Below, piece by piece: positions 27,087 through 48,298 of a stretch of 64,000 nt of DNA. The notes under the pieces are model-generated. The model worked only from the letters and a program-made list of their open reading frames with translations, was not told the DNA's origin and did no database searches. A program made the translations under genes and the position numbers. The stretch is from Candidatus Heimdallarchaeum aukensis (GTDB taxonomy: Archaea > Asgardarchaeota > Heimdallarchaeia > Heimdallarchaeales > Heimdallarchaeaceae): NCBI GenBank assembly GCA_021513695.1, contig CP084166.1, positions 2,752,001 through 2,816,000 of the forward strand, written 5' to 3'. Every line of letters begins with the position of its first letter. Positions within the stretch are counted from its first letter, which is position 1.

Positions 27087-30065
27087 TTATTCTTCATTAG
27101 TAGAAGGTAAAAAAACCATTCCTTCTTTTCTTTTTGCGTCAACTCTTACAATTAAGGGTACATCTGTTTGTACATGAACAACATAATCCCCTTCTTCAAT
27201 AATTTTTTGACTTTTTAACCATTCCCAGTTTATAACATGTTTCTCTGAATTGTGTTTTATGTATAGATAACCTAAATTTCCAGCAACAATAGAAGAGAAA
27301 AAGTGACTTCCTTGGCTAAAATCCACACTGAAATCTGATGTTGAAGCTTCAATAATAGCTATAGCACCGTTAATATTTGTCCATTTTACAGGAATACCTA
27401 AAAATCTATCAGCGGTTCCCCATCTACCAAAGCCAATTAGGATATAAGGTGCGTTTTTCTCTCGTAGAATAGCGTTTAATTCATCTATTTCTTGAACAAT
27501 TTCAAGTGTTTTTGTCTTATCAAAAGTCTCTGGCCTAACATAAATAATGTCATTAATATCTTTTCTAATTAAGTTACCACTTACCGTGTTTGAAAAAAGA
27601 ATAATTTTGTCTTTCTGAATCATAGAATAATCTTCAAATTCTAATTCTTCTTGCAACAAAAATGGTCTGATTTGTAGCATATAGAATTGATCTTTTTCTT
27701 CCTTACCAGACTTGAAATTGCCTGCAAATTCTATTTCAATAGGCGAACCCATCGCTTTTTCTCCTATTTCCATCATTGTACTAATTATTTTTGCAAGAGG
27801 AAAGGTTTCTAATTTTAGTTGTTGGTTAAAAGTTATAACTGGAGAACCTTTTTGGTAATATCCTGTCTTCAATGCTTCAGAATTAAAGTCATATGTATCG
27901 GCTATTTTTGTCAAAGATCCGTCTTTTATTGCATGAATTAAGTTATACTTCTTCACATAAGGGTCAGTCGTCTCAATGTCGAATTCGTCTTTTTCCATAT
28001 CTATAGCATAAAAAGTATTTTGGCTTTGTTCAAGAAGTTCTTTAATGTCTGCATAGTAATTAACCTTTGGGTATTTTGGGCTAAATCGAATTGATTGTCC
28101 TCCTTCTACAACATATCTTCCTAGACCTAAAGCCACACTGGCTATCCTATCTTCAGATTTCATATAGTGACCTATTGGATAGAAATTGAAGGAAGAAGCT
28201 GTTCCGCTAAAATTAGGATAGTATCTCCCATCATATCGTTTTCCTACAACTTCTTGTATAACTACAGCCATTTTAGATTGTTCTACAGTCATGTCAATTA
28301 ATTCTGCGTATGTTCGTGCGAGTTTCAAAAAGGGGGAGGCATAGACTAATTTTATTGCCGTACATAATTGATTTAGACGTTTTTTAATATCTGAACTATT
28401 ATTGGGCAACATATAAGTCTCAAAAATTCCTGCAAATGGTTGATAGGCAGAATCTTCTAATAAACTTGAAGAACGAATGGCTAAAGGTTTTTTCAAATCT
28501 TTAAGCAAAAACTGCAAGTCTTCACGTAAACTAGATGATAATTTAGCTTTAACGAACTTTTCTTTTATTTGTTTGTCTGTTATATCTGGTTTGTGAGCAA
28601 ACTCATACAAATTGTTTTCAGCCATAAATTTATCAAATTCATCAGTTCCTATTACAATAGTTTTTGGTATTGTGATTGTAACGTTAGGAAATAGATCTTG
28701 AAGCTTGAATGAATGGATTAAGAACATTATAAAAGCTACTCCTCTCCCCTTTCCTCCTAATGAACCTGGACGAAGTCTTAAAAAAAGTATCTCTGGATGG
28801 TAGCTGTCTTTATTAAAATCATTTACTATCCCTTTGGTTTTCTCTACCACTATTCTTCTAAAATTCTTCAGTAAAAATTCTCTTAATTCTTCGTCTGTGA
28901 ACTCTGAAACTTTTCTGGGCTTAAGTGCTTCTGCTACATCGAACTCTCCTCTAGCATTTAACCATCCAGAAAAATGGTCATTTTTTCCATGATATTTTAA
29001 CGATTCATATGGAATTACCTTTAATTGTTCATAGAATTCAATTATATCTTTTGCTCTTCCCAGTTCTTTTCCTTTTTCATCTCGAAAAATAAATTCACCA
29101 AAACCAACGCATTCTAACAACCATTTATTAAGAGCACTTAAGACCTCGTGACTTCCTTTGTATATGAAGAAACAAGCTAGTTCATCTGCAAGTTTTTTAT
29201 ATTCCTTCTTTGAGGATTGCAAAATTACAGGAAGATTTTTTGTTTCTTTTTTTATTTGTTTTATAAAATCAATTCCTGCATTTTTGTCTAATACTCCATT
29301 TCTCGGGAATTCAACATCAGTAATTACTCCTAAAACATTGCTCTTATACTTAGAAAAATACTCCATCGCTTCTTCGTAAGTTTCAGCAAGTAATATTTTT
29401 GGCCTTATCCTCATCTTAAGTAGATCTAAATAATCGTTTGAACCTTCAAGTATTAATTGATGTGTCTGCTTCATTATGGCCCCATAAAGCTCTGGAAGAA
29501 GGAGTGAATAATGACGAATAGAATCCTCTACAAAAATGAAAACTCTAACATTTGCTATTTTAATATCATTATCAATATTTAATTTATCTTCCAAATGTTT
29601 AACAATTGCTACAAATAGTTTTGAATCACCATTCCAAACAAAAATACGATCAACATTTTTTCTTTTAGATTTTTCAGGTAAATATTTAATTTCTACAACA
29701 CTATTTAAAAGTAGAACTACAGGAATGTTTTTGATTTTCTTTACTTTTTCACCAAAAGTAAAAGGATTAATATCTCCAACCCGACTCATAGTTATTACTA
29801 AATCAAAATCTTCTTTTTTTATTAGCTCTAAAGCCTCAGAAGCTAATGAAACGCGGGTTATTCTTGGAAGAGTTCTCAAGTTAAGGTTCCGAAACTCTTC
29901 ATAAACTTGGTCGGATAACCTCCCATCCTCTTCTAAGAGAAAACTATCGTAGATTGAACTTACAATTAATATATTTTTCATCCTAATTTTCATTAATTCG
30001 TGAAATACTTTGTATCTAGGTTTGTATTCTGAGAATAACTGATTTGAACCTCTTATAAAATCCAA
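27087..30065 (-). CDS. Receiver-like domain(s) fused to PEP/pyruvate-binding (PPDK_N, ATP-grasp) domain protein
   Basis: N-terminal KNILIVSS...DLVITM...PVVLL receiver-like segments; LGGKGRGVAFIM and LAIRSSSLLEDSAYQPFAGIFETY match PPDK_N/PEP-synthase nucleotide-binding motifs (GGK..nL..m; vRSSa..ED...sFAGq.eT). Confidence 0.5.
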   Translation of the reverse strand: MDFIRGSNQLFSEYKPRYKVFHELMKIRMKNILIVSSIYDSFLLEEDGRLSDQVYEEFRNLNLRTLPRITRVSLASEALELIKKEDFDLVITMSRVGDINPFTFGEKVKKIKNIPVVLLLNSVVEIKYLPEKSKRKNVDRIFVWNGDSKLFVAIVKHLEDKLNIDNDIKIANVRVFIFVEDSIRHYSLLLPELYGAIMKQTHQLILEGSNDYLDLLKMRIRPKILLAETYEEAMEYFSKYKSNVLGVITDVEFPRNGVLDKNAGIDFIKQIKKETKNLPVILQSSKKEYKKLADELACFFIYKGSHEVLSALNKWLLECVGFGEFIFRDEKGKELGRAKDIIEFYEQLKVIPYESLKYHGKNDHFSGWLNARGEFDVAEALKPRKVSEFTDEELREFLLKNFRRIVVEKTKGIVNDFNKDSYHPEILFLRLRPGSLGGKGRGVAFIMFLIHSFKLQDLFPNVTITIPKTIVIGTDEFDKFMAENNLYEFAHKPDITDKQIKEKFVKAKLSSSLREDLQFLLKDLKKPLAIRSSSLLEDSAYQPFAGIFETYMLPNNSSDIKKRLNQLCTAIKLVYASPFLKLARTYAELIDMTVEQSKMAVVIQEVVGKRYDGRYYPNFSGTASSFNFYPIGHYMKSEDRIASVALGLGRYVVEGGQSIRFSPKYPKVNYYADIKELLEQSQNTFYAIDMEKDEFDIETTDPYVKKYNLIHAIKDGSLTKIADTYDFNSEALKTGYYQKGSPVITFNQQLKLETFPLAKIISTMMEIGEKAMGSPIEIEFAGNFKSGKEEKDQFYMLQIRPFLLQEELEFEDYSMIQKDKIILFSNTVSGNLIRKDINDIIYVRPETFDKTKTLEIVQEIDELNAILREKNAPYILIGFGRWGTADRFLGIPVKWTNINGAIAIIEASTSDFSVDFSQGSHFFSSIVAGNLGYLYIKHNSEKHVINWEWLKSQKIIEEGDYVVHVQTDVPLIVRVDAKRKEGMVFLPSTNEE

Positions 30066-30337
30066 TTTTTTCTCTCCTTTTGTTACTATTACACTATTTT
30101 GTTTTCTTCCTATTATTATTTTCCTTAGATTTTTAAAAAAAATTGTTTAACGCTGTATGACTGATGTTTTTTGTTTAGACTCTATTAGTTTTTACTTTTT
30201 TTGCTTTTTTAATGATTTTAACTTAAATTATCTCCAAATTTTTAGAGAAAATATATAGTTTCAAAGGAAAAAGTATTTAAATAAAGTATTAGACGAACTC
30301 TTACGTAACTAAGTTACTTATTTACAAGGTGAAAAAA

Positions 30338-30628
30338 ATGTCTGAAGGAGAAAATCAAGAAAGCGTAATTTTTATTGGCCGAAAATCGACTATTTCTTAT
30401 GTGTTGGTAGCTGTTACCATACTAAATAAGAATGATACTTGCAATATTCAAGCTCGTGGAAGACAAATTTCCAAAGCTGTTGATGTTGCAGAAATTACTC
30501 GACGCAAATTCCTTGCTGATCAAGTCGTTGTTGACAATGTCACAATCTCATCAGAAGAATTGCCTTCTGATAATGGAGAAGGAACAAAAACCGTAAGTAC
30601 AATTGAAATTACTCTCAAAAAGAAATAA
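30338..30628 (+). CDS. albA: Alba (Sso10b) DNA/RNA-binding protein
   Basis: VIFIGRKSTISYVLVAVTILNKN...IQARGRQISKAVDVAEITRRKF...VSTIEITL is the Alba signature; ATG 30338 after AAGGTGAAAAAA RBS (track start 30329 is a GTG inside the RBS). Confidence 0.8.
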   Translation: MSEGENQESVIFIGRKSTISYVLVAVTILNKNDTCNIQARGRQISKAVDVAEITRRKFLADQVVVDNVTISSEELPSDNGEGTKTVSTIEITLKKK

Positions 30629-30810
30629 TCTATGAGAGTAATCTAACTCAGAGATTTTTCCAATAATTTTTCTTTTTGTTTTATTTTGAAACTATTTTTT
30701 TGCTCACATAATTCTAAAGTATCGTATTGTAGAGTATAATATAGTTTCGTGTAAAAAATGTGCGCTATTTCAAAATATTATTATATCCAAACTTTAAACA
30801 TTTATAAACA

Positions 30811-32589
30811 ATGAATATCCGAACTAAAAGTGATTTTATTATAGTAGCAATTAGCGTGCTTGTGTTCTCTACAACAAGAGTTATCTATAGCCTTTTAATA
30901 ATAAATTGGAATAATTATGAAAAAGGGAATGTTACACCTTCATTTTTATTTTGGATAGATTTTATATCCTATTTTGTGGTTTTTTTCTTGTATTTGCTCT
31001 ATGGGTGGTATATTCGAAGGAAACTTGTTAAAAAAAATCAAGATAAAGGAGATTATTCCTTACATTATATTATTAGAATATTTATTACTATTTATGCCCC
31101 CATTTTCCTCATATCTTTTGTTATTTCTTTTATAAAACAAATTGATTTACGGATATACTATACTGCATCGATATTTAATGAAACAGTTCAAATGATGTTT
31201 TTTAGTACACTAGTGGGTATTCTTCTATATAATCAAATTGAGCAATTTTTCTCTAAAGTTTTTAAATCTTCTAATTATCAAAAATATTCTTCTGAAGAGT
31301 TGACTTTTCTTGAGCAATCAATAGTCAAAACAATTAACCGTTTTTGGAGTTATGCGCTTTACACAGTTCTATTTTTTGTTTTTTTAGCAAATTTTTTGGT
31401 TTTAGTAATCTATCCAAGTATCCCTACAGAATACGATTCTAGTATCAAATTAATTATAGCCTATCCAAATTTCTCTTTTACCTTTAATAAAGAAACAGGT
31501 TTTCATCAAGAATTTTTTACTTATCTTGCACTAGATTATACAAAGTTTCTTAACTGGAAATTAATTCAGTCTTTACTCTGTATTCTTTTTATTTTAGCAA
31601 TAGCACTACTTTATTATCTTCCTTTGCATAAAAAAGAAAACGAACCTTTAAACAATGTAGAAAAACAAGAGATTGCAGAAATAAAATCTAAAACAGAAGA
31701 AGTTCAAAGCACAGAAAAAGGAATACTCAAGCAAAAAGATACAACAAAGTTAAACAACACAGGTCTACAACAAGAGATTGATTCCATCGTTTTCCTAAAC
31801 ACTGAAAATGATTATTATACTCCAATAGGTTTTATTAAGAAAAGAAACAGAAAACTTGAAAAATTGTTGTCTCAAATGAAAAAAAGTGATATTATCCCTG
31901 TGATGAATCTTGCTGCTTTGAATCTGGGTTTAGCTATGGTTTTTGTTTATTTTGTTCACTTATTTGTTCCATTAGCATATTCAAGTTACACATTATCAGA
32001 TATTCTTTATATCCAACTTTCATCGTTGTATTGGGCTGGATTATTTGAAGAAATTTCTTTCAGATTCTTGATCATGGGTGTTCCCTTATTTATTATTCAT
32101 GGTTTTCGTTACTTAATAGCAAAGATTTTACAATATTATAAATCAAAAAATGAGGTTCCAGTGAAAGAAAAAGAAGAAAACAAAAAAATAGAGAATCCTT
32201 TTCTCTATTTAACTGGTCGTTGGAAAAAGTTAAGGATTATTGATTTTGTTTTCTTGATAGCTTCTTCTTTCTTTTTTGGTTATGTTCATTATCAATTTGG
32301 AAGTTGGGCTATATGGAAAATCTTTCAGGCTGGAATTGCTGGACTTATTTTTGGATATGCTTTCTATAAATTTGGTTTGCACGCAGCTATCTTCCTTCAT
32401 ACAGTCAATGATTTTGCAATAGGTATAATGCTTGTTCCAAATTTAGGGTTAATGGTTCAAGGAGGATTTGTAGTTATTGTACTTGTTTTAATGGGAATAA
32501 TGTACTCATTCTATATTTTTTCATTATTTCTTAAAAAAACAAGCAATCTAAGCTTTAGAAAATTGAATAAACAAAAAGAGGTAAACTAA
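30811..32589 (+). CDS. CPBP-family (CAAX-protease/Abi, Rce1-like) intramembrane metalloprotease with long polytopic N-terminal extension
   Basis: C-terminal motifs EEISFRF (EExxxR), FGYVHYQ (FxxxH), HTVNDF (HxxxN/D) in TM helices. Confidence 0.6.
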   Translation: MNIRTKSDFIIVAISVLVFSTTRVIYSLLIINWNNYEKGNVTPSFLFWIDFISYFVVFFLYLLYGWYIRRKLVKKNQDKGDYSLHYIIRIFITIYAPIFLISFVISFIKQIDLRIYYTASIFNETVQMMFFSTLVGILLYNQIEQFFSKVFKSSNYQKYSSEELTFLEQSIVKTINRFWSYALYTVLFFVFLANFLVLVIYPSIPTEYDSSIKLIIAYPNFSFTFNKETGFHQEFFTYLALDYTKFLNWKLIQSLLCILFILAIALLYYLPLHKKENEPLNNVEKQEIAEIKSKTEEVQSTEKGILKQKDTTKLNNTGLQQEIDSIVFLNTENDYYTPIGFIKKRNRKLEKLLSQMKKSDIIPVMNLAALNLGLAMVFVYFVHLFVPLAYSSYTLSDILYIQLSSLYWAGLFEEISFRFLIMGVPLFIIHGFRYLIAKILQYYKSKNEVPVKEKEENKKIENPFLYLTGRWKKLRIIDFVFLIASSFFFGYVHYQFGSWAIWKIFQAGIAGLIFGYAFYKFGLHAAIFLHTVNDFAIGIMLVPNLGLMVQGGFVVIVLVLMGIMYSFYIFSLFLKKTSNLSFRKLNKQKEVN

Positions 32590-33176
32590 TGACACTTGAT
32601 AGCAGATTATACTTTAAAGTTGTTTTAGCTGGAGAAGCAGGGGTAGGAAAAACAAGTCTTCGAAGAAGTTATTTGGGAGTAGGATTCCAGACACAGCATT
32701 TAAGTACTATAGGTGCAGACTTTGCAAGTTATTCTACAAAAATAAATGAACAAAGAGTGAATTTTCAGATTTGGGATTTAGCTGGTCAAGATATCTTCGA
32801 AAGCATGCGAAATTTGTATTATAAAGGAAGTTTGGGTGCATTGATGGTTTTTGATGTAACCGATGTATCTAGTCTAGAAGCCTTAAACAATTGGATAATT
32901 GAATTAGATAAAAATTCAGGTAGAGGAATTGTACCTTTTTCCATATTAGGAAATAAAATAGATCTATTAGATGAGGAAGAACTCAATAAAATAAGAAAAA
33001 CTGTAGACTTAGTCATAAAAAAATACAATAAAAAATTTGCAAGTAAGGGTTTTTCGATTAATTATTTTGAAACTTCAGCGAAAACTGGCCATAATGTCAA
33101 AATCGCTTTTAATAATCTTGGAGAATCAATTTTTAATTATCTTGAATTCAGAAGAAAGAAGAGGGAAGAAAGTTGA
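32589..33176 (+). CDS. Rab/Ras-like small GTPase
   Basis: G1 GEAGVGKTS, G2 T in switch I, G3 WDLAGQD, G4 GNKIDL, G5 ETSAKTG; start overlaps CPBP stop (TAATG); no C-terminal CAAX. Confidence 0.8.
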   Translation: MTLDSRLYFKVVLAGEAGVGKTSLRRSYLGVGFQTQHLSTIGADFASYSTKINEQRVNFQIWDLAGQDIFESMRNLYYKGSLGALMVFDVTDVSSLEALNNWIIELDKNSGRGIVPFSILGNKIDLLDEEELNKIRKTVDLVIKKYNKKFASKGFSINYFETSAKTGHNVKIAFNNLGESIFNYLEFRRKKREES

Positions 33177-35527
33177 AAAATATTGATGTTGAACTAAGAG
33201 ATTTATTGAGAACTGGAAAAAAAGAATCTATTGATATAAATAACCTAAAAAAACTAAAAAGTATAATTCTCTTCCTAAATGACGAGGATCGTGAAATAAG
33301 ACGTACTACACAAGAGATTCTCTTATCTGCTCCTATAATCCCAGTTAGCGAAATTGTTGATCTTTATCTCTCTACTGAGAGTGAATATGTTGCTGATTTT
33401 ATAGTTGAAAATTTAAATATTTTCTTAATTGATTTGGTAGACAGATTTAGTAACAAGATAGATAGTATTATTGTTTCTGAATTAATTAAAAAAATCCCTG
33501 TAAAAGATTTATTTGCTACTTTAGTCGAAATCGCTGAAATTACTCCTATTTCAGCTAAAAAAGCTGAACTCATAATCCGAACATGTTATCCTTCTTTTTC
33601 AGAAAGCATGAATTCATTAATATCCTATGATTTTATTGAAAATTTCAAAAAAGAGATAAAAAAACTTCTTTCTATAAGACTAAAAGAGAATGATAAAAAT
33701 ATTACAACTCTTGTTCTAAAGACTGCGTGTTTCTTTCCTGAACTTCCCCCTCTGATAGAAAAAGAACTAATTAATATCATTAATCATTCAGATATAGAGG
33801 AACACATAATTTATGCAACTACTGCTTTAATAAATGTAGAAAACAAAAAGAATGCGCAGATTCTAGCTAATAGACTTAAAAATGGAAAAGATTCAGAAAA
33901 AGTAAAATTAGCTATTATTGAATCCCTTGGTAATATAGGAAATCCAAAGATTGCGCCAATAATGATCGAATTATTCGATGAAGGAGGACAGATAGCTTAC
34001 TCTACATCTAAAAGTCTGGGGTCAATGGGTGTTGAAGTCTTACCTTATTTAGTTCAAGCATTAAAAGAAGATCGTTATATACCAAATATTGTAGAGTCTA
34101 TGAAACGTATTGGTAGTGCAAGCTTCGAATATCTGATGACTAGCTTGGAAAAGGAAAGAAATATACAAATTAGAAAAAACATTGCTCATTGTTTAACACT
34201 GGTGATGCATGAACAATATGGTTATGAGGGAACAATTAAACTACTAACAAACGAATTAGCAGGAAAAAATCGAGAGCTAGTAGAAGCAGTAACTCAAGCG
34301 CTAATAAATTTAGGTACTCCTTCAATTGAGTATCTCATTGATGAATTAAATGATAAAGATCGCGAATTAAGAAAAAATGCAGTAAAAATTCTTGAACATT
34401 TTGGAGAAGGAAATATTGAAATTGCTCTTGATGGGTTACTTGAAACAGATGAAGATAGAGTAGGTACATTGAGTATTATATTATATGTTTACCATCCTGA
34501 TGAAAGATTAAGAAAATTAGGATATTCTTTTGCTGTTCATAAAGGAAATCTAAGAGCTAAAAAAACAGACAAATTACTTGAAATATTGACTGATGCCCTT
34601 AATGAAATTGACCCCTATATTCGAATTCGTTCTTGTGATATACTTGTATTTTTCAAAAGTAAGGCCATTCCTCATTTAACCAAACTTCTCTCTGACCCAA
34701 ACATTCTAGTTAAAAGAAAAGCAGCAGAGGCACTACGTACAATAAAAAGCAAAAGAGCATTAATAGCATTGATGAATGCTGCTACTGATAAAGACCCAAT
34801 AGTTTCTGAAATTTCTACAAGAGCTTTGGGAGAATTAGGAGATCCAGGTGTTGTAGATATCATTCTTGGGAATTTAAAGAGAAATAGTCAAGCAATATAT
34901 GAAGCTTCAGTTTATGCTCTTTCTCAACTAGGAACACCTATATTACACAAGATAACAAAAGAATTAAGCAGTTCAAATAAAAAAGTTGTAGATGGTATAG
35001 TCGATGCAATATCGAAAATAGGGACAGTTGGACTAGAAATTCTGATAAAAAAATATTTAGAAGAGAACGGAAGAAGAGTTGCACAAATTGAACGAATAAT
35101 TGGAAAAATGGGCGAAACAGCAATACCTGCAATATTAGAAATATATGAAAAGACTAGTGATTCTCAAAATAAAGAAAAGTTATTGAGACTAAGGGCAAAG
35201 ATTAAAGATACTTCTGTAACTAAAGAAATAGTTGAAAAGCTACAAAAACCAGCTAGTAAAAAAACAGCAATTGAACTTATAAATTTGATTGGAATTGAAT
35301 GTGTGAATAAAATAGTTGATGAATTACTCAAATTAGAACAAAACAAAGTAAAAAGGATTTTCACAAAGAATATTAAAATTGAACCTAAAATATTGGTTTC
35401 GATTATTAAGGAGTTGAAATTAAGAGAACAACAGCAACTTGCACTACATCTTATTAATCAAAACCAAAGAACGTTAAAGAAATTTGTAAGCGAGAATCCA
35501 GAATTTGAAAGTTTGTTTGAAGAATAA
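33173..35527 (+). CDS. HEAT/PBS-lyase-type repeat protein
   Basis: Repeated about 30-aa helical repeats with ...ALG.IG.P.A...L...L.D motif (for example AIIESLGNIGNPKIAPIMIELFDEG; ALRTIKSKRALIALMNAATDKDPIVSEISTRALGELGDP); start overlaps GTPase stop (TTGA). Confidence 0.6.
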   Translation: MKNIDVELRDLLRTGKKESIDINNLKKLKSIILFLNDEDREIRRTTQEILLSAPIIPVSEIVDLYLSTESEYVADFIVENLNIFLIDLVDRFSNKIDSIIVSELIKKIPVKDLFATLVEIAEITPISAKKAELIIRTCYPSFSESMNSLISYDFIENFKKEIKKLLSIRLKENDKNITTLVLKTACFFPELPPLIEKELINIINHSDIEEHIIYATTALINVENKKNAQILANRLKNGKDSEKVKLAIIESLGNIGNPKIAPIMIELFDEGGQIAYSTSKSLGSMGVEVLPYLVQALKEDRYIPNIVESMKRIGSASFEYLMTSLEKERNIQIRKNIAHCLTLVMHEQYGYEGTIKLLTNELAGKNRELVEAVTQALINLGTPSIEYLIDELNDKDRELRKNAVKILEHFGEGNIEIALDGLLETDEDRVGTLSIILYVYHPDERLRKLGYSFAVHKGNLRAKKTDKLLEILTDALNEIDPYIRIRSCDILVFFKSKAIPHLTKLLSDPNILVKRKAAEALRTIKSKRALIALMNAATDKDPIVSEISTRALGELGDPGVVDIILGNLKRNSQAIYEASVYALSQLGTPILHKITKELSSSNKKVVDGIVDAISKIGTVGLEILIKKYLEENGRRVAQIERIIGKMGETAIPAILEIYEKTSDSQNKEKLLRLRAKIKDTSVTKEIVEKLQKPASKKTAIELINLIGIECVNKIVDELLKLEQNKVKRIFTKNIKIEPKILVSIIKELKLREQQQLALHLINQNQRTLKKFVSENPEFESLFEE

Positions 35528-35528
35528 G

Positions 35529-36533
35529 CTAAAAATCTTTTTTCTCAATTTCTCCTTTTTGCATTTGTGGTATTAACTCTTTTATCAGTAAAGGAAGCAA
35601 GTTAAGTTCCATGTGAAAAGGAGAAAAAATTTCGATATTTTTCTCATCAAAATTGAAATATGGTTTTTCTACAGTTTCCACAAGATAATAGTCTAATATT
35701 TTAAAATCTTGAATAGTTGAAAAGAGTATAGTAAAATTTTCAGTTAATTGTTGCAATATTTTCTCTTTTTCTGATTTTGAAGTAAGCTGGAAAAGGTTTA
35801 GATAGCCTTCTGTTTCCATATGAATGTATAATTTAGTGGTGTTATCAATTAAATTTATTCTAGGAAATTTCTCTACTAATGGCGTCTTTGCTGCTAGAAC
35901 ATTAGTTAGTTTATTTCTCTCAGGAATAATAGTATGATCTGTTAGTATCAAAAACTTGTTAACGCGTATCCTTTTACTTTTAAAAAGAAATTCTTTATTA
36001 TCCGGATTGTAACTGATTTCTTGTTTCCTATATTCTATTAGTTCTACTTTTAATTTTTTTAGTTCATTTAAAATATAAGCTGCTAAACCCCCTAAATTAT
36101 TTATAACAAGTGAGGAATCAGAAATTAAGCCCTTGTTATATCTCTCTGAATTTAATAAAGGGAGAGTTTGTTTAATCTCTTTTTGTCTTAAAATACTGCA
36201 GTTCATATTAGAATTTTGTAGTTTATTATACATCTCTTCAGTTTCACGTAGAGAACTGTTTAGAATTAATAGTGAAGCTTTTGAAATATCAAAGGATTTT
36301 GTAGTGTAAAATAAATCATTATAAAATTCTAAAGAGGTAGTCAATATTTGTTCAATCTTTTCTAGTGGGTATGAAAATAATGGATAGACAAAACTAGGGA
36401 GAAAAAGACTGTTGCGAATAAGTTCTTCGTTGTAAAAATAAGTTATCTTTAAATCTGAATTTTCTTTCATTATTTGATAGACTAAAATTAAGCTGGTGAG
36501 ATTATTTCCAATGACAACTATATCTCTTTCCAT
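35529..36533 (-). CDS. Hypothetical protein
   Basis: 334-aa ORF, convergent with HEAT gene; no domain recognised. Confidence 0.3.
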   Translation of the reverse strand: MERDIVVIGNNLTSLILVYQIMKENSDLKITYFYNEELIRNSLFLPSFVYPLFSYPLEKIEQILTTSLEFYNDLFYTTKSFDISKASLLILNSSLRETEEMYNKLQNSNMNCSILRQKEIKQTLPLLNSERYNKGLISDSSLVINNLGGLAAYILNELKKLKVELIEYRKQEISYNPDNKEFLFKSKRIRVNKFLILTDHTIIPERNKLTNVLAAKTPLVEKFPRINLIDNTTKLYIHMETEGYLNLFQLTSKSEKEKILQQLTENFTILFSTIQDFKILDYYLVETVEKPYFNFDEKNIEIFSPFHMELNLLPLLIKELIPQMQKGEIEKKDF

Positions 36534-36584: not shown

Positions 36585-36863
36585 ATGTCATATGTGATAA
36601 AATTAAAAGTAATTAAACAAGAAGGACATTGTGCTTCAGGGCACAAAGTTGGGGATGAAATTGAGATTAATTACAATGACAATTCAATAAAAGGAAAAAT
36701 TTGTCTTCATGCTCTCTATTCAATTCTTCCCAAAGTTTTTGCTATGGCGTATGGATCTGAGTTTCCATGGTTAGAAAATGCTGATGTTTCCACACATGCA
36801 TGTCCAGATTACAAGAATCCAGTGGTTTTTGAGGTTAGAAGAGAAAAAATAAAAGAAAATTAA
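36585..36863 (+). CDS. Small Cys/His-containing hypothetical protein
   Basis: 92 aa with HCASGH ... CLHA ... HACPDY possible metal-binding residues. Confidence 0.3.
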   Translation: MSYVIKLKVIKQEGHCASGHKVGDEIEINYNDNSIKGKICLHALYSILPKVFAMAYGSEFPWLENADVSTHACPDYKNPVVFEVRREKIKEN

Positions 36864-36896: not shown

Positions 36897-37817
36897 CTAT
36901 CCTTTGACCAATTTTATTATTGCATCTATTATAAAATCTAATAGAAATACAAGGAATACGATTAATAAGATTTCTTTTGTAGTATATGCCCATTTAGGAT
37001 TTTGAGTAATGATTATTGCTATAGCTAAACCTAATACTAGTAGAGCCAAGATAATAGCAATAATAAGTGAGGGTAAGTATAAGTCAGCAATAATCATCGC
37101 ACCAATAGCTCCCCCTGCTAGACCTAGAAGGAAAAAAGCACCTACGATGCCAGCTACTCTTGGACCAAAAACAACAGCTATAGTTTTGTTTCCTGCTTTT
37201 TTATCTCCTTCGATGTCTGGTAAACCTTTTATTACTTCTCTACCTACATTTCCAGAAGCTGCCGCAAGACCTACAATAGTTGGAACCCAAGTAAAACCTT
37301 GTTGATAAACAAAATAACTGAATAGAGATCCATAGACAAAGAGAGCTACAACATTCAATCCAATAAGCACATTACCAAAAAATCCCATCTGTTTTACTTT
37401 GAAATTGTATAAGTTTAATGAACTTCCAAATATTAAAGCTGTAATAACACTTATTCCTGGTAAACCTTCTCTAATATCAATTAACAAAGCTAAAATTAGA
37501 GCGATCAAAGCAACAATTACCCCGTAAATAACTGCTGTTCTTACTGATATTTTCTTTGATGGTATAGGTCTATGTGGAGCATTTACTAGATCTTCTTCTC
37601 TGTCTGCAATATCATTAAAAATCATAGCTTGAGATGAAACGAGCGTACCAGATAATAGAACAAGTAGAAGGGTTATGTAATCAATTTTTGCTCCTACAGG
37701 AGTTGATAGAATGATAGCAAAAATTGCAGCTGTTCCTGCTACTATACCATTTACTAACCTAAGAATTGTTATATAAGAAAGAAAAATATCTTTTTTCGAG
37801 TGTTTTGTTAAAGACAT
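36897..37817 (-). CDS. UbiA-family prenyltransferase (possibly DGGGP-synthase-like)
   Basis: NDIADREED (NDxxDxxxD) Mg2+/diphosphate motif, about 8 TM; 3' 720 bp lie inside repeat copy 1. Confidence 0.65.
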   Translation of the reverse strand: MSLTKHSKKDIFLSYITILRLVNGIVAGTAAIFAIILSTPVGAKIDYITLLLVLLSGTLVSSQAMIFNDIADREEDLVNAPHRPIPSKKISVRTAVIYGVIVALIALILALLIDIREGLPGISVITALIFGSSLNLYNFKVKQMGFFGNVLIGLNVVALFVYGSLFSYFVYQQGFTWVPTIVGLAAASGNVGREVIKGLPDIEGDKKAGNKTIAVVFGPRVAGIVGAFFLLGLAGGAIGAMIIADLYLPSLIIAIILALLVLGLAIAIIITQNPKWAYTTKEILLIVFLVFLLDFIIDAIIKLVKG

Positions 37818-39240
37818 AAGGTCTAATCATTAGCAGATGAATTTAAATCTTACCTCTTTTTTTGAGTATAAATTACTCGCTTTTTTTTCCTGTTATCTCA
37901 AATGTTTTGATTTCACTATCATTTTCAGGAAGTTTAAGCAGTTCTAAAAGTGATAAGATCATCTTGCCAAATAATTTTTCCATAAATTCATTTAAAGGAA
38001 TCTCTTTTCCATTAATCTTTACTTCTATTTCATCTAACATGAAAAAAAAAACACTGTTGAGTTTATTAATTTTATCTTAATCTCAAATGAATAATTATAA
38101 CTTTTTTAGTTAAAGAATTCACTTAACCAAGAGTTCACTATACTTTTTTGCTAAATTAAATGAAAAAAATTTAAAGAAAAGAAGCAATAAAATTATATTT
38201 AAATATTATGAGCGTAGGTAAGAATATAGGTGTAAATTTTCATGGAAGTAGGTGCGTTAATTTTTATGCTACTAATTGCACTGGCAGTGTACATAACCAT
38301 AAGGGTTTCCTCAGCGAATAAGAAGAAGAGAAAACAAATTTATCGTAAACGATATCAACCTTATCAACCTTACAGACCTTATCAGCCATCACACCTAGAT
38401 TCTTCTCAAAGAACAAGTTATCAGAGTGAAGAAACCACCCCAACAACAAGAACTTCTTCTATTTATCAACCTCAAACTCAACCCTCTTATACTCCACAAA
38501 GAACTCCAATAGCAACAAATAATGCCGATGATTATTATCGTGCAGGAATGTACGATAGAGCAAAAGAAGAATATCTTAAAACAGGGAGGATATTTGGTGC
38601 AGCTAAATCTGTAGCTTCTAAAGGAAAAGAATATGTAAAAGAAGCTTTGGAAATAATTAGACAATATGCTCCAGAAAGAGAAGAAGAAATGGTAAGAAAT
38701 CTTTCAAGATACTTTTTTGATAGTGGAGATGTAGAATTATCAGCTCAAGTATTATATGATTATAATCTTATTGAAGAAGCTAAAGCAGTATTAGCTACCA
38801 TAGGAAAGAGTATAGAAGATATAGTTGAACCTAAATCTGTTGAGATTAGCACATTCAGTAGCACTGAACCCTTTCTATCTAGTACTGAAAGTGAAACAGA
38901 ACCTATCATTTCCAGTTTTGCTAGCGATACTGAACCAATAAATGATGCAAGAGAAGAGCTGAAAGTATTGGCAAGTGAAGAAGAAGCAGAACCCATTGAG
39001 CCTTTTACAAGTCAAGTTGAAAAACAGAAAAAAATAGAACCACAACAACTAAAGATAGCTACAGTAGATTTAGATGAAAGATGTACAGTTTGTTTAGGAG
39101 AAGTAAAAGCAGGAGAAAGTTTTGTTAGATGTCCCCATTGTGGAAAACCTTCTCATTATTCTCATTTAGTAGAATGGCTAAAAGTAAAAACCCAATGTCC
39201 TAACTGTAGAAACAAATTATCATTAAATATGTTTAAAACA
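37098..39240. repeat. Tandem direct duplication, copy 1 (2143 bp)
   Basis: Sequence 37098-39240 recurs at 39241-41381 with only two single-base differences. Confidence 0.9.
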
Positions 39241-39264
39241 CGCACCAATAGCTCCCCCTGCTAG
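38242..39264 (+). CDS. Membrane-anchored, Pro/Tyr/Gln-rich protein with C-terminal RING/PHD-like (C4H2C2 cross-brace-type) zinc finger
   Basis: N-terminal TM (LIFMLLIALAVYITI), low-complexity YQPYQPYRPYQP...TPTT region, C-terminus CTVCLGEVKAGESFVRCPHCGKPSHYSHLVEWLKVKTQCPNCRN. The last 8 codons (RTNSSPC) are created by the duplication junction; native end is ...MFKT*. Confidence 0.55.
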   Translation: MEVGALIFMLLIALAVYITIRVSSANKKKRKQIYRKRYQPYQPYRPYQPSHLDSSQRTSYQSEETTPTTRTSSIYQPQTQPSYTPQRTPIATNNADDYYRAGMYDRAKEEYLKTGRIFGAAKSVASKGKEYVKEALEIIRQYAPEREEEMVRNLSRYFFDSGDVELSAQVLYDYNLIEEAKAVLATIGKSIEDIVEPKSVEISTFSSTEPFLSSTESETEPIISSFASDTEPINDAREELKVLASEEEAEPIEPFTSQVEKQKKIEPQQLKIATVDLDERCTVCLGEVKAGESFVRCPHCGKPSHYSHLVEWLKVKTQCPNCRNKLSLNMFKTRTNSSPC

Positions 39265-39960
39265 ACCTAGAAGGAAAAAAGCACCTACGATGCCAGCTAC
39301 TCTTGGACCAAAAACAACAGCTATAGTTTTGTTTCCTGCTTTTTTATCTCCTTCGATGTCTGGTAAACCTTTTATTACTTCTCTACCTACATTTCCAGAA
39401 GCTGCCGCAAGACCTACAATAGTTGGAACCCAAGTAAAACCTTGTTGATAAACAAAATAACTGAATAGAGATCCATAGACAAAGAGAGCTACAACATTCA
39501 ATCCAATAAGCACATTACCAAAAAATCCCATCTGTTTTACTTTGAAATTGTATAAGTTTAATGAACTTCCAAATATTAAAGCTGTAATAACACTTATTCC
39601 TGGTAAACCTTCTCTAATATCAATTAACAAAGCTAAAATTAGAGCGATCAAAGCAACAATTACCCCGTAAATAACTGCTGTTCTTACTGATATTTTCTTT
39701 GATGGTATAGGTCTATGTGGAGCATTTACTAGATCTTCTTCTCTGTCTGCAATATCATTAAAAATCATAGCTTGAGATGAAACGAGCGTACCAGATAATA
39801 GAACAAGTAGAAGGGTTATGTATCAATTTTTGCTCCTACAGGAGTTGATAGAATGATAGCAAAAATTGCAGCTGTTCCTGCTACTATACCATTTACTAAC
39901 CTAAGAATTGTTATATAAGAAAGAAAAATATCTTTTTTCGAGTGTTTTGTTAAAGACATA
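39241..39960 (-). pseudogene. UbiA prenyltransferase fragment (copy 2): 3'-truncated at the repeat junction and frameshifted
   Basis: Same sequence as 37098-37817 but missing one A (GTTATGTATCAA vs GTTATGTAATCAA), which splits the N-terminus; lacks the C-terminal 67 codons. Confidence 0.6.
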
Positions 39961-41381
39961 AGGTCTAATCATTAGCAGATGAATTTAAATCTTACCTCTT
40001 TTTTTGAGTATAAATTACTCGCTTTTTTTTCCTGTTATCTCAAATGTTTTGATTTCACTATCATTTTCAGGAAGTTTAAGCAGTTCTAAAAGTGATAAGA
40101 TCATCTTGCCAAATAATTTTTCCATAAATTCATTTAAAGGAATCTCTTTTCCATTAATCTTTACTTCTATTTCATCTAACATGAAAAAAAAAACACTGTT
40201 GAGTTTATTAATTTTATCTTAATCTCAAATGAATAATTATAACTTTTTTAGTTAAAGAATTCACTTAACCAAGAGTTCACTATACTTTTTTGCTAAATTA
40301 AATGAAAAAAATTTAAAGAAAAGAAGCAATAAAATTATATTTAAATATTATGAGCGTAGGTAAGAATATAGGTGTAAATTTTCATGGAAGTAGGTGCGTT
40401 AATTTTTATGCTACTAATTGCACTGGCAGTGTACATAACCATAAGGGTTTCCTCAGCGAATAAGAAGAAGAGAAAACAAATTTATCGTAAACGATATCAA
40501 CCTTATCAACCTTACAGACCTTATCAGCCATCACACCTAGATTCTTCTCAAAGAACAAGTTATCAGAGTGAAGAAACCACCCCAACAACAAGAACTTCTT
40601 CTATTTATCAACCTCAAACTCAACCCTCTTATACTCCACAAAGAACTCCAATAGCAACAAATAATGCCGATGATTATTATCGTGCAGGAATGTACGATAG
40701 AGCAAAAGAAGAATATCTTAAAACAGGGAGGATATTTGGTGCAGCTAAATCTGTAGCTTCTAAAGGAAAAGAATATGTAAAAGAAGCTTTGGAAATAATT
40801 AGACAATATGCTCCAGAAAGGAAGAAGAAATGGTAAGAAATCTTTCAAGATACTTTTTTGATAGTGGAGATGTAGAATTATCAGCTCAAGTATTATATGA
40901 TTATAATCTTATTGAAGAAGCTAAAGCAGTATTAGCTACCATAGGAAAGAGTATAGAAGATATAGTTGAACCTAAATCTGTTGAGATTAGCACATTCAGT
41001 AGCACTGAACCCTTTCTATCTAGTACTGAAAGTGAAACAGAACCTATCATTTCCAGTTTTGCTAGCGATACTGAACCAATAAATGATGCAAGAGAAGAGC
41101 TGAAAGTATTGGCAAGTGAAGAAGAAGCAGAACCCATTGAGCCTTTTACAAGTCAAGTTGAAAAACAGAAAAAAATAGAACCACAACAACTAAAGATAGC
41201 TACAGTAGATTTAGATGAAAGATGTACAGTTTGTTTAGGAGAAGTAAAAGCAGGAGAAAGTTTTGTTAGATGTCCCCATTGTGGAAAACCTTCTCATTAT
41301 TCTCATTTAGTAGAATGGCTAAAAGTAAAAACCCAATGTCCTAACTGTAGAAACAAATTATCATTAAATATGTTTAAAACA
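39241..41381. repeat. Tandem direct duplication, copy 2 (2141 bp, two 1-nt deletions)
   Basis: Identical to copy 1 except loss of one A near 39823 and one A near 40823. Confidence 0.9.
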
Positions 41382-41384
41382 TAA
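40384..41384 (+). pseudogene. RING/PHD-like membrane protein gene (copy 2) disrupted by a -1 frameshift
   Basis: CCAGAAAGGAAGAAG in copy 2 vs CCAGAAAGAGAAGAAG in copy 1; ORF split into 40384..40836 and 40830..41384; keeps native C-terminus ...NMFKT*. Confidence 0.6.
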
Positions 41385-47755: not shown

Positions 47756-48298
47756 TTACTTATTTTCTCCAAGTTTCTTCATTACTAACTTGACTATTGT
47801 GACATAAACATCATTTACTCCTGCTCCTAATTTAGCAGAAGTCTCAAGAACTTGGTAACCTTTACTTTCCCATTCTTTTTTTGCTTGTTCATAAGGTACA
47901 GCTCTTTGTTCTTCTAGATCTGTTTTATTTCCAACAATGATGATTGGTATGTCAGGTACTTTATTTTCTATCTCTGATATCCAATAAGAAATATTTTCAT
48001 ATGATTCTTTTCTAGTAATGTCATAAACCACCACAGCACCATGAGCTCCAGTGTAATACCTTTTCCTTAAGGAAGCTAGACGTTCTTGTCCCACTGTATC
48101 AAATAATACCATTTTTATTTTTGTATCCTCATCAATGTCAACTTCCTTGCTGTAGAAATCCACTCCTAATGTAGGAAGATAATTAACCGAAAATTTGTTC
48201 TTTGTATATCTCACCGCAATACTTGTTTTTCCGACACTATAGTCACCAACATTAATTATCTTAACAATAAAGGTGACATTTTTGTTTGAACCTAACAT
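47756..48298 (-). CDS. Rab/Ras-like small GTPase
   Basis: G1 GDYSVGKTS, G3 FDTVGQE, G4 GNKTDL, G5 ETSAKLG; no CAAX. Confidence 0.8.
   Translation of the reverse strand: MLGSNKNVTFIVKIINVGDYSVGKTSIAVRYTKNKFSVNYLPTLGVDFYSKEVDIDEDTKIKMVLFDTVGQERLASLRKRYYTGAHGAVVVYDITRKESYENISYWISEIENKVPDIPIIIVGNKTDLEEQRAVPYEQAKKEWESKGYQVLETSAKLGAGVNDVYVTIVKLVMKKLGENK

Follow-up and report, generated by a model that had tools for sequence, protein, structure and literature searches.

The 64,000-nucleotide stretch of the Candidatus Heimdallarchaeum aukensis genome analysed here (contig CP084166.1, positions 2,752,001 to 2,816,000; the window) contains, at positions 30811–35527, three consecutive + strand open reading frames (ORFs) (Table 1). 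They encode a polytopic membrane protein with a CPBP (Rce1-like) domain (gene 1), a Rab-like small GTPase (gene 2) and a large HEAT-repeat protein (gene 3), and together they form a polycistronic, translationally coupled unit, referred to below as the triad. The ORF listing and the sequence show that the TAA stop codon of gene 1 (32587–32589) shares one nucleotide with the ATG of the GTPase gene (32589–32591) in the junction aaactaATGaca (TAATG), and that the TTG start codon of the HEAT gene (33173–33175) and the TGA stop codon of the GTPase gene (33174–33176) give a 4-nt overlap in the junction gaaagTTGAaaa (TTGA). An earlier interpretation made from the DNA alone (the sequence-only reading) had reported both overlaps and had proposed that the three genes are co-expressed. 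The overlaps were borne out, and the triad behaves as one translationally coupled operon whose neighbourhood was kept in 20 of the 20 related loci that were informative.

Shine–Dalgarno (SD)-like motifs are located ahead of both internal genes, in a window with a G+C content of approximately 30 %, and their correct spacing fits that of internal genes in archaeal operons. Upstream of gene 1, T-runs 3' of the Alba stop codon form an archaeal-type termination signal and a TATA-like stretch lies approximately 23–35 nt ahead of the gene 1 ATG. These signals suggest a single transcription unit in which gene 1 would be leaderless or near-leaderless and the internal genes SD-led. A scan for sigma-70 promoters and terminators returned 24 sites against 28 expected, and is uninformative for archaea.

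The membrane protein, the GTPase and the solenoid

The gene 1 product gave no match to Pfam or NCBIfam, searched as a whole protein and in halves, even at E<=10, so that its CPBP assignment rests on motifs and orthologues. An alignment of 28 sequences was used, in which the 27 homologues were full-length (570–614 aa) except for one partial sequence of 411 aa, and the three CPBP motifs were conserved throughout (Table 1). The spacing of motif 3 is slightly atypical with respect to HxxxN/D, with N533 at +3 and D/N534 at +4 from H530. The gathering score of PF02517 (22.4 bits) was passed by 3 of the 28 orthologues (34–37 bits, E=3e-9 to 2.5e-8), with matches spanning approximately 139 residues for 86 profile positions, equivalent to aa 395–535. 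The gene 1 product is 100 % identical to an NCBI protein from Ca. Heimdallarchaeum aukensis, and its NCBI product name is CPBP family intramembrane metalloprotease. A CPBP-family profile found no match among PDB sequences, and a Foldseek search of the gene 1 model (predicted local distance difference test, pLDDT, 69.6) against the PDB gave nothing below an E of 0.5. By transitive homology, gene 1 can be accepted as encoding a divergent member of the CPBP-domain proteins whose catalytic site appears intact, and catalytic competence is predicted from the motifs. The CPBP call of the sequence-only reading was correct by motifs and orthologues, though the window protein itself has no Pfam match. 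The polytopic N-terminal extension of approximately 380 aa that it had described is real, the Pfam-detectable CPBP region beginning at about residue 395 as judged from the orthologues.

Hydropathy and the positive-inside rule indicate approximately 12 transmembrane (TM) helices in an N-in/C-in orientation, with cytoplasmic loops rich in K/R. The extracytoplasmic loop of the N-terminal region (aa 204–249) is strongly conserved (YPNFxFTFNxETGFxQEFF), with strands at 214–219 and 236–241 in the AlphaFold2 (AF2) model. A profile of aa 1–275 searched against 1.84 billion representative proteins gave 16 matches, all but one with E<=1e-30 (15 proteins). The full-length ones (541–618 aa) all had the architecture of gene 1, and the shorter ones were partial. 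Since all profile matches share this architecture, the N-terminal 275 residues constitute a clade-specific orphan domain. An archaeosortase/exosortase–CPBP fusion was considered as an explanation of this domain and ruled out, as the domain lacks the invariant Cys, Arg, His triad. Two further elements are placed on the cytoplasmic side. The linker that follows the orphan domain has a pLDDT below 50 over residues 275–344 of the AF2 model, is predicted to be disordered and is variable in the alignment. The basic loop at aa 431–475 carries an invariant NPxxYLxGxWKK motif (P463, Y466, L467, G469, W471, K472), is predicted to be cytoplasmic and is a candidate docking site.

Compared with CPBP/Rce1-like proteins (PF02517; MmRce1, S. 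aureus SpdC and MroQ), gene 1 shares the EExxxR, FxxxH and H..N motifs on successive TM helices. It differs in being too divergent for PF02517, in having an orphan six-TM N-domain of approximately 275 aa, a disordered linker of approximately 85 aa, an insertion of approximately 45 aa between motifs 1 and 2 and an HxxN[D/N] form of motif 3, and in having no apparent prenylated substrate.

The GTPase matched the Pfam Ras family (E=9e-40), and its best 60 PDB matches were all Rab/Ypt proteins, with Ypt51 first (2e-29) followed by Rab21, Rab7, Rab8 and Rab10, in agreement with the domain call made previously. The nucleotide-binding motifs are complete (G1 GEAGVGKT, switch I TIGADF, G3 WDLAGQ, G4 NKID, G5 SAK); G1–G5, the Rab-type switch I and the switch-II Gln were invariant in an alignment of 18 orthologues. 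The intact G motifs predict a catalytically competent enzyme. By direct reading, IGADF, QIW, YYKGS and MVFDVT resemble RabF1, 2, 4 and 5, and RabF3 is poorly matched. The absence of a C-terminal Cys/CaaX, already claimed in the sequence-only reading, extends to the whole protein (end ...EFRRKKREES), which contains no cysteine at all, and a C-terminal Cys was found in none of the 18 orthologues compared. As it lacks the C-terminal geranylgeranylation cysteines, the protein is described here as Rab-like and not as a bona fide Rab.

A short basic tail ([YH]RK[KE]xR) is conserved after the last GTPase helix and in the window reads RRKKREES. At 33150–33176, and at the equivalent positions in 17 loci, the tail codons (M-R-G-K, R-R-K-G or K-R-E-E) also form the SD of the HEAT gene and are dual coding. 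The complete G1–G5 motifs, TIGADF, QIW, YYKG and FDVT are shared with Asgard Rab-like proteins (Thor-Rab, PDB 7EZB; PMC10933270) and with Rab/Ypt, and other Asgard Rab-like proteins are likewise without a C-terminal Cys tail. In contrast to the Asgard and eukaryotic Rabs, the protein belongs to an orthogroup found only in Heimdallarchaeaceae and has an insertion of approximately nine residues between G4 and G5. The window also encodes a second small GTPase of 180 aa (Table 1), which is 32 % identical to the operon GTPase and for which no CPBP or HEAT neighbour was noted.

The gene 3 product matched HEAT_2 in five stretches (1.7e-33) and the prokaryote-type HEAT_PBS (1.2e-16), so that its earlier classification as a HEAT-repeat protein stands. 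Its AF2 model (mean pLDDT 88) is an all-alpha solenoid of approximately 47 helices, with conservation peaking centrally at aa 281–440. No hydrophobic segments were found in either the GTPase or the HEAT protein, the latter being soluble. A Foldseek search of the model retrieved generic large solenoids only (SF3B1, CAND1, karyopherin-beta2 and mTOR; template-modelling scores of 0.19–0.31), and no IBN_N, Adaptin_N or other family-specific Pfam domain was detected at E<=0.01. Kinship with karyopherins, adaptins or condensins was not supported, as only generic solenoid matches were obtained. The protein resembles karyopherin-beta, CAND1 and SF3B1 in being an all-alpha HEAT_2/HEAT_PBS solenoid, and its 784 aa are comparable to the length of karyopherin-beta2, which binds the small GTPase Ran. 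It differs from these eukaryotic solenoids in its low structural similarity (template-modelling scores of 0.2–0.3), in having no IBN_N or Adaptin_N domain and in having no relatives above 100 bits outside its own clade.

Conservation and distribution of the triad

One genome per species was scanned with the CPBP alignment, giving 19 loci, of which 17 hold downstream DNA. Together with the contigs L024, L025 and L026, these made up the set of 20 informative loci. The triad was found in identical order and on the same strand in all of the related loci with downstream DNA (20/20), including L024, where identity is 45 %, and L025 and L026, which were the most divergent members obtained in the profile search. 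Among loci, protein identity dropped to 33–40 % for the CPBP protein, 37–42 % for the HEAT protein and 53–59 % for the GTPase. The GTPase-to-HEAT gap was −14 to +1 nt in 20 of 21 places (window included), with L026 at +24 nt, and the CPBP-to-GTPase gap was −11 to +35 nt in the related loci and the window. Overlap or abutment of the GTPase and HEAT genes, present at all loci but one, is typical of subunits made in fixed proportion. Translation signals were also retained, with GAGGGG, GAGGAGG or TGAGGGG positioned 7–10 nt ahead of the HEAT start in 18 of 18 loci (the window and 17 related loci) and a GTGA-, GGTAA- or GGGAT-type SD-like element ahead of the GTPase start in the 17 related loci, at the spacing seen in the window.

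Changes were observed around the triad. Alba shares the strand of the triad in the two Heimdallarchaeum genomes and in L025, is divergent in most other loci and is absent from L026, which has also lost TIGR04076; L005, L007 and L017 have insertions between downstream genes. No rearrangement, strand flip, loss or insertion was found inside the triad among the loci compared. One contig of 2.6 kb that carries the triad is labelled Thorarchaeota (L015, JBHLQZ010000304.1). It is probably a mis-binned Heimdallarchaeaceae contig, because the GTPases of L015 and of the Heimdall locus L016 hardly differ.

Homologues of each protein fell into bounded sets. The family sharing the CPBP extension comprised 28 proteins. 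The HEAT family had 23 close homologues (366–1525 bits; 783–799 aa when full-length, with a few partial), and the next match was at 100 bits. The GTPase orthogroup contained approximately 50 clusters at >=53 % identity, followed by a gap in score from 217 to 193 bits. The neighbours of the closest outgroup GTPases (P0107, P0110 and P0119, the last from Hodarchaeales) were unrelated and included no CPBP/HEAT pair, and the neighbours of the closest outgroup HEAT protein (P0052) were unrelated to the triad. By these searches, each of the three proteins forms a discrete orthogroup confined to genomes of the Heimdallarchaeaceae type. The sequence-only reading was correct in taking the host to be an Asgard archaeon and had looked to conservation of the triad across Asgard genomes: adjacency was kept in each of the 20 informative loci, at CPBP and HEAT identities down to 33–40 %, but the wider scope was not supported, as the triad is confined to Heimdallarchaeaceae-type genomes.

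Proposed function and relation to known systems

It is probable that the three gene products act together. The reading preferred here, to which we assign a probability of roughly 0.45, is that they constitute a small-GTPase switch module that is associated with the membrane and specific to Heimdallarchaeaceae, arranged as follows. Gene 1 would provide a 12-TM membrane platform whose extracytoplasmic loop is conserved, whose cytoplasmic loops are long and basic and whose CPBP protease domain is apparently competent. The GTPase, which is without a lipid anchor, would reach the membrane via the conserved cytoplasmic elements of this platform. The HEAT solenoid would be its stoichiometric partner, serving as an effector, a scaffold or a regulator resembling a guanine nucleotide exchange factor (GEF) or GTPase-activating protein, and the two may pair in a nucleotide-dependent manner, the pair docking on the basic loops that are conserved on the cytoplasmic side of the gene 1 product. 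The nucleotide state of the GTPase would couple the solenoid to the membrane protein, and would gate or respond to its proteolytic or sensing activity. We infer every physical contact and every direction of control in this switch model.

Several observations weigh against the switch module. Synteny also covers Alba upstream and, downstream, the convergent 334-aa DAO-like gene, TIGR04076, UbiA and three more genes. Because these flanking genes are partly syntenic too, gene order alone is weak evidence of functional linkage, and part of the conservation of the triad may reflect phylogenetic inertia within one family. Conservation of the basic GTPase tail (RKxMRGK, RRKKREE) may operate at the nucleotide level, since it overlaps the SD of the HEAT gene, and this weakens tail-based ideas. 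The HEAT protein appears from its matches to be a generic prokaryote-type solenoid that matched no specific effector or GEF family. The statement in the sequence-only reading that HEAT proteins act as GTPase effectors is a generic analogy only, the solenoid matching no specific effector, karyopherin or adaptin family.

The best-placed alternative, although unlikely, is a receptor-coupled switch, in which gene 1 would encode a TM sensor and a GEF or docking receptor, the HEAT protein would be an adaptor- or coat-like effector and the protease domain would be accessory or a scaffold. CPBP proteins can serve as membrane scaffolds for partners, as exemplified by SpdC–SagB, SpdC being a catalytically inactive CPBP protein; gene 1, in contrast to SpdC, retains all catalytic residues. 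A receptor role would be consistent with the strong conservation of the extracytoplasmic beta-hairpin loop (aa 204–249), with the conserved cytoplasmic motifs Y336xP and NPxxYLxGxWKK and with the co-occurrence of a HEAT-PBS solenoid and a small GTPase in haloarchaeal vesicles (PMC10927574). However, the residues of the protease motifs are all invariant, which points to retained catalysis rather than to a pure scaffold, no similarity to known GEF, adaptin or karyopherin families was found, and the scheme is inference throughout.

It is less likely again that the triad reflects inherited synteny without shared function, and that the CPBP protein acts on its own, for instance in processing the envelope or peptides as other prokaryotic CPBPs do. 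Such an origin would account for the extended flank order noted above and is compatible with the derivation of all loci from one family-level clade; moreover, 291 small GTPases were counted in eight Asgard genomes (PMC8813620), so that it is not rare for one of them to lie beside a CPBP gene by chance. Set against this are the start/stop overlaps and SD motifs, which were kept while the CPBP and HEAT proteins diverged to 33–40 % identity, the restriction of rearrangements to the surroundings of the triad and the strict coincidence of the distributions of the three clade-specific orthogroups.

The sequence-only reading had also drawn an analogy with Rce1 and its Ras/Rab substrates. The CPBP family is, however, very large in prokaryotes, where its substrates are not prenylated. 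An Rce1/CaaX-type relationship is unsupported because the GTPase has no Cys/CaaX and 0/18 orthologues have a C-terminal Cys, and no homologues of Rab geranylgeranyltransferase (RabGGTase) or Rab escort protein (REP) were found in Asgard archaea (PMC10933270). The locus resembles eukaryotic CaaX processing, which proceeds from farnesyl- or geranylgeranyltransferase to Rce1 to isoprenylcysteine methyltransferase (ICMT) on the tails of Ras, Rho and some Rab proteins, in that it links a protease of the CPBP family with a GTPase of the Ras superfamily. It differs in that the GTPase has no Cys and that a protein prenyltransferase and ICMT are not in the locus. Among the window genes scanned, which covered part of the window, no protein prenyltransferase, REP or ICMT was noted and only a UbiA-type prenyltransferase was seen. 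The triad does not appear to be a CaaX or prenyl-processing system. A prenylation-independent protease–substrate relationship, the non-canonical form of the Rce1 idea raised in the sequence-only reading, in which the CPBP domain would cleave the GTPase tail or the HEAT protein and so control membrane association or activity, is very doubtful: the genes are co-encoded and coupled, the CPBP motifs are intact, the GTPase has its conserved basic tail and bacterial CPBP proteases do cleave non-prenylated peptides, but none of the 18 GTPase orthologues has a Cys/CaaX, no Asgard RabGGTase or REP is known, as cited above, the tail is only approximately 8–12 residues long with a conservation that coincides with the SD of the next gene, and a protease has no need of 1:1 coupled synthesis with its substrate.

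Equally improbable is an arrangement in which a receptor-protease recruits or activates the GTPase, which recruits the HEAT solenoid as an adaptor- or coat-like effector, or a variant in which the CPBP domain trims the GTPase or the solenoid. The trimming variant would be a prenylation-independent forerunner of the Rce1–Ras/Rab relationship. The neighbouring UbiA prenyltransferase and DAO-like genes could hint at a lipid link. A defence-system reading, based on the 'Abi' history of CPBP, was discarded, as PADLOC gave a generic HEAT-ARM repeat match only and nothing for the CPBP protein or the GTPase.

For the switch module, a comparison is offered by ArvABC of Haloferax volcanii, the operon of the archaeal vesiculating GTPase ArvA, which has a membrane function; a HEAT-PBS solenoid is enriched in the vesicles (PMC10927574). 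Among archaeal operons in which a small GTPase acts at the membrane, ArvABC is the closest operational precedent. In both loci a small GTPase is one of three genes in a conserved archaeal operon, and the ArvABC products act at the membrane. They differ in that the Arv partners are DUF2073 (ArvB) and DUF2072 zinc-ribbon (ArvC) proteins, in that ArvA belongs to another GTPase family and in that the haloarchaeal HEAT-PBS protein is encoded elsewhere. No description of the present operon was found in the literature on Asgard prenylation, CPBP–GTPase links or Asgard GTPase–HEAT links. The triad is a combination of known families not yet described, together with an orphan membrane domain.

Asgard genomes each encode dozens of Ras-superfamily GTPases. 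The Rab-like ones are without a prenylated tail and are rarely, or as a rule not, encoded in operons together with regulators (Tran et al. 2024, PMC10933270), which makes the assignment of partners difficult. The triad locus is an exception: in contrast to most Asgard GTPases, the operon GTPase is encoded in a conserved and coupled operon that names two specific candidate partners, one being the membrane protein that combines an orphan domain with a protease domain and the other the large HEAT solenoid. This makes the question of GTPase partners directly testable. If true, the switch module would represent one archaeal route to membrane recruitment of a GTPase without prenylation. Its significance is limited by the narrow distribution, by the generic nature of the solenoid and by a partnership that is still putative. 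The module is restricted to Heimdallarchaeaceae, and its relevance to eukaryogenesis is by analogy and not ancestry, because no eukaryotic orthologue is recognisable for any of the three orthogroups.

Neighbouring genes and feature coordinates

Table 1. Positions of the triad, its sequence elements and adjacent features in the window
Feature	Position	Strand	Description
Gene 1	30811–32589	+	592 aa, ATG start; polytopic membrane protein, C-terminal CPBP (Rce1-like) domain
Gene 2	32589–33176	+	195 aa, ATG start; Rab-like small GTPase
Gene 3	33173–35527	+	784 aa, TTG start; all-alpha HEAT-repeat solenoid
N-terminal orphan domain, aa 1–275	30811–31635	+	Six TM helices and a conserved extracytoplasmic beta-hairpin loop
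Charged cytoplasmic linker, aa 276–360	31636–31890	+	About 85 aa; 17 K/R, 15 D/E; ends in invariant Y336-x-P338, S359-D360
CPBP motif 1, EExxxR (E413, E414, R418)	32047–32064	+	TM8; aa 413–418; invariant 28/28
Family-specific basic loop, aa 431–475	32101–32235	+	About 45 aa, 12 K/R; between the motif-1 and motif-2 helices
CPBP motif 2, FxxxH (F489, H493)	32275–32289	+	aa 489–493; invariant 28/28
CPBP motif 3, H530-x-x-N533-[D/N]534	32398–32412	+	H530 and N533 invariant; 534 is D or N
SD-like GAGGT	32578–32582	+	Within the end of gene 1, 6 nt ahead of the GTPase ATG
SD-like GAGGG	33161–33165	+	Within the GTPase basic-tail codons, 7 nt ahead of the HEAT TTG
Alba gene	30329–30628	+	Directly upstream of the operon
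Intergenic region 5' of the operon	30629–30810	+	T-runs after the Alba stop codon; AT-rich TATA-like sequence (direct reading)
334-aa gene	35529–36533	−	DAO-like; convergent with the HEAT gene
TIGR04076 gene	36585–36863	+	Small protein
UbiA gene	36897–37817	−	UbiA-family prenyltransferase
Tandem direct repeat, first copy	37098–39240		2.14-kb repeat
Tandem direct repeat, second copy	39241–41381		2.14-kb repeat
RING-finger gene	38242–39264	+	340 aa
Shortened UbiA gene	39223–39768		In the second repeat copy
Split RING-finger gene	40384–40836 / 40830–41384		In the second repeat copy; frameshift
Second small GTPase gene	47756–48298	−	180 aa
992-aa gene	27087–30065	−	Response-regulator receiver and PPDK_N

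The 334-aa gene adjoins the triad in all loci, the most divergent ones among them, and in the window its stop codon is separated by a 1-nt gap from that of the HEAT gene. The window copy of the protein has no Pfam match; 7 of 14 orthologues match DAO (FAD-dependent oxidoreductase, 9e-8). The protein may be a non-flavin pseudo-enzyme, since its GxGxxG motif is degenerate, with only G9 invariant. A role as a prenylcysteine oxidase, an idea prompted by PCYOX1-like Asgard proteins (PMC12962969), was ruled out, as the orthologues match DAO only and not Prenylcys_lyase.

The TIGR04076 gene is close to the triad in most loci, and the UbiA gene in nearly all of those that extend far enough. The latter resembles geranylgeranylglycerol-phosphate geranylgeranyltransferase, at 1e-28 to 3e-40 and below equivalog cut-offs. 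The acceptors that UbiA enzymes prenylate are small molecules or lipids rather than proteins. The position of a UbiA gene beside a 'CaaX-protease-family' gene is a thematic coincidence, and protein prenylation is unsupported.

The window contains an exact 2.14-kb tandem direct repeat, whose copies show no mismatches and two 1-nt indels, and the second copy carries a shortened UbiA gene and a RING-finger gene split by a frameshift. The repeat has the appearance of an artefact of assembly or of a duplication that took place very recently. The RING-finger gene at 38242–39264, which is present in several related loci, encodes a protein with a TM-like start, a Pro/Gln/Tyr-rich N-terminal region and a C-terminal RING finger (zf-RING_2, 3.9e-6), and is possibly a ubiquitin-ligase-like eukaryotic signature protein. 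On the other side of the triad, the 992-aa protein combines a response-regulator receiver with a PPDK_N domain (PEP-utilising, ATP-binding), and its gene is syntenic only with H. endolithica.

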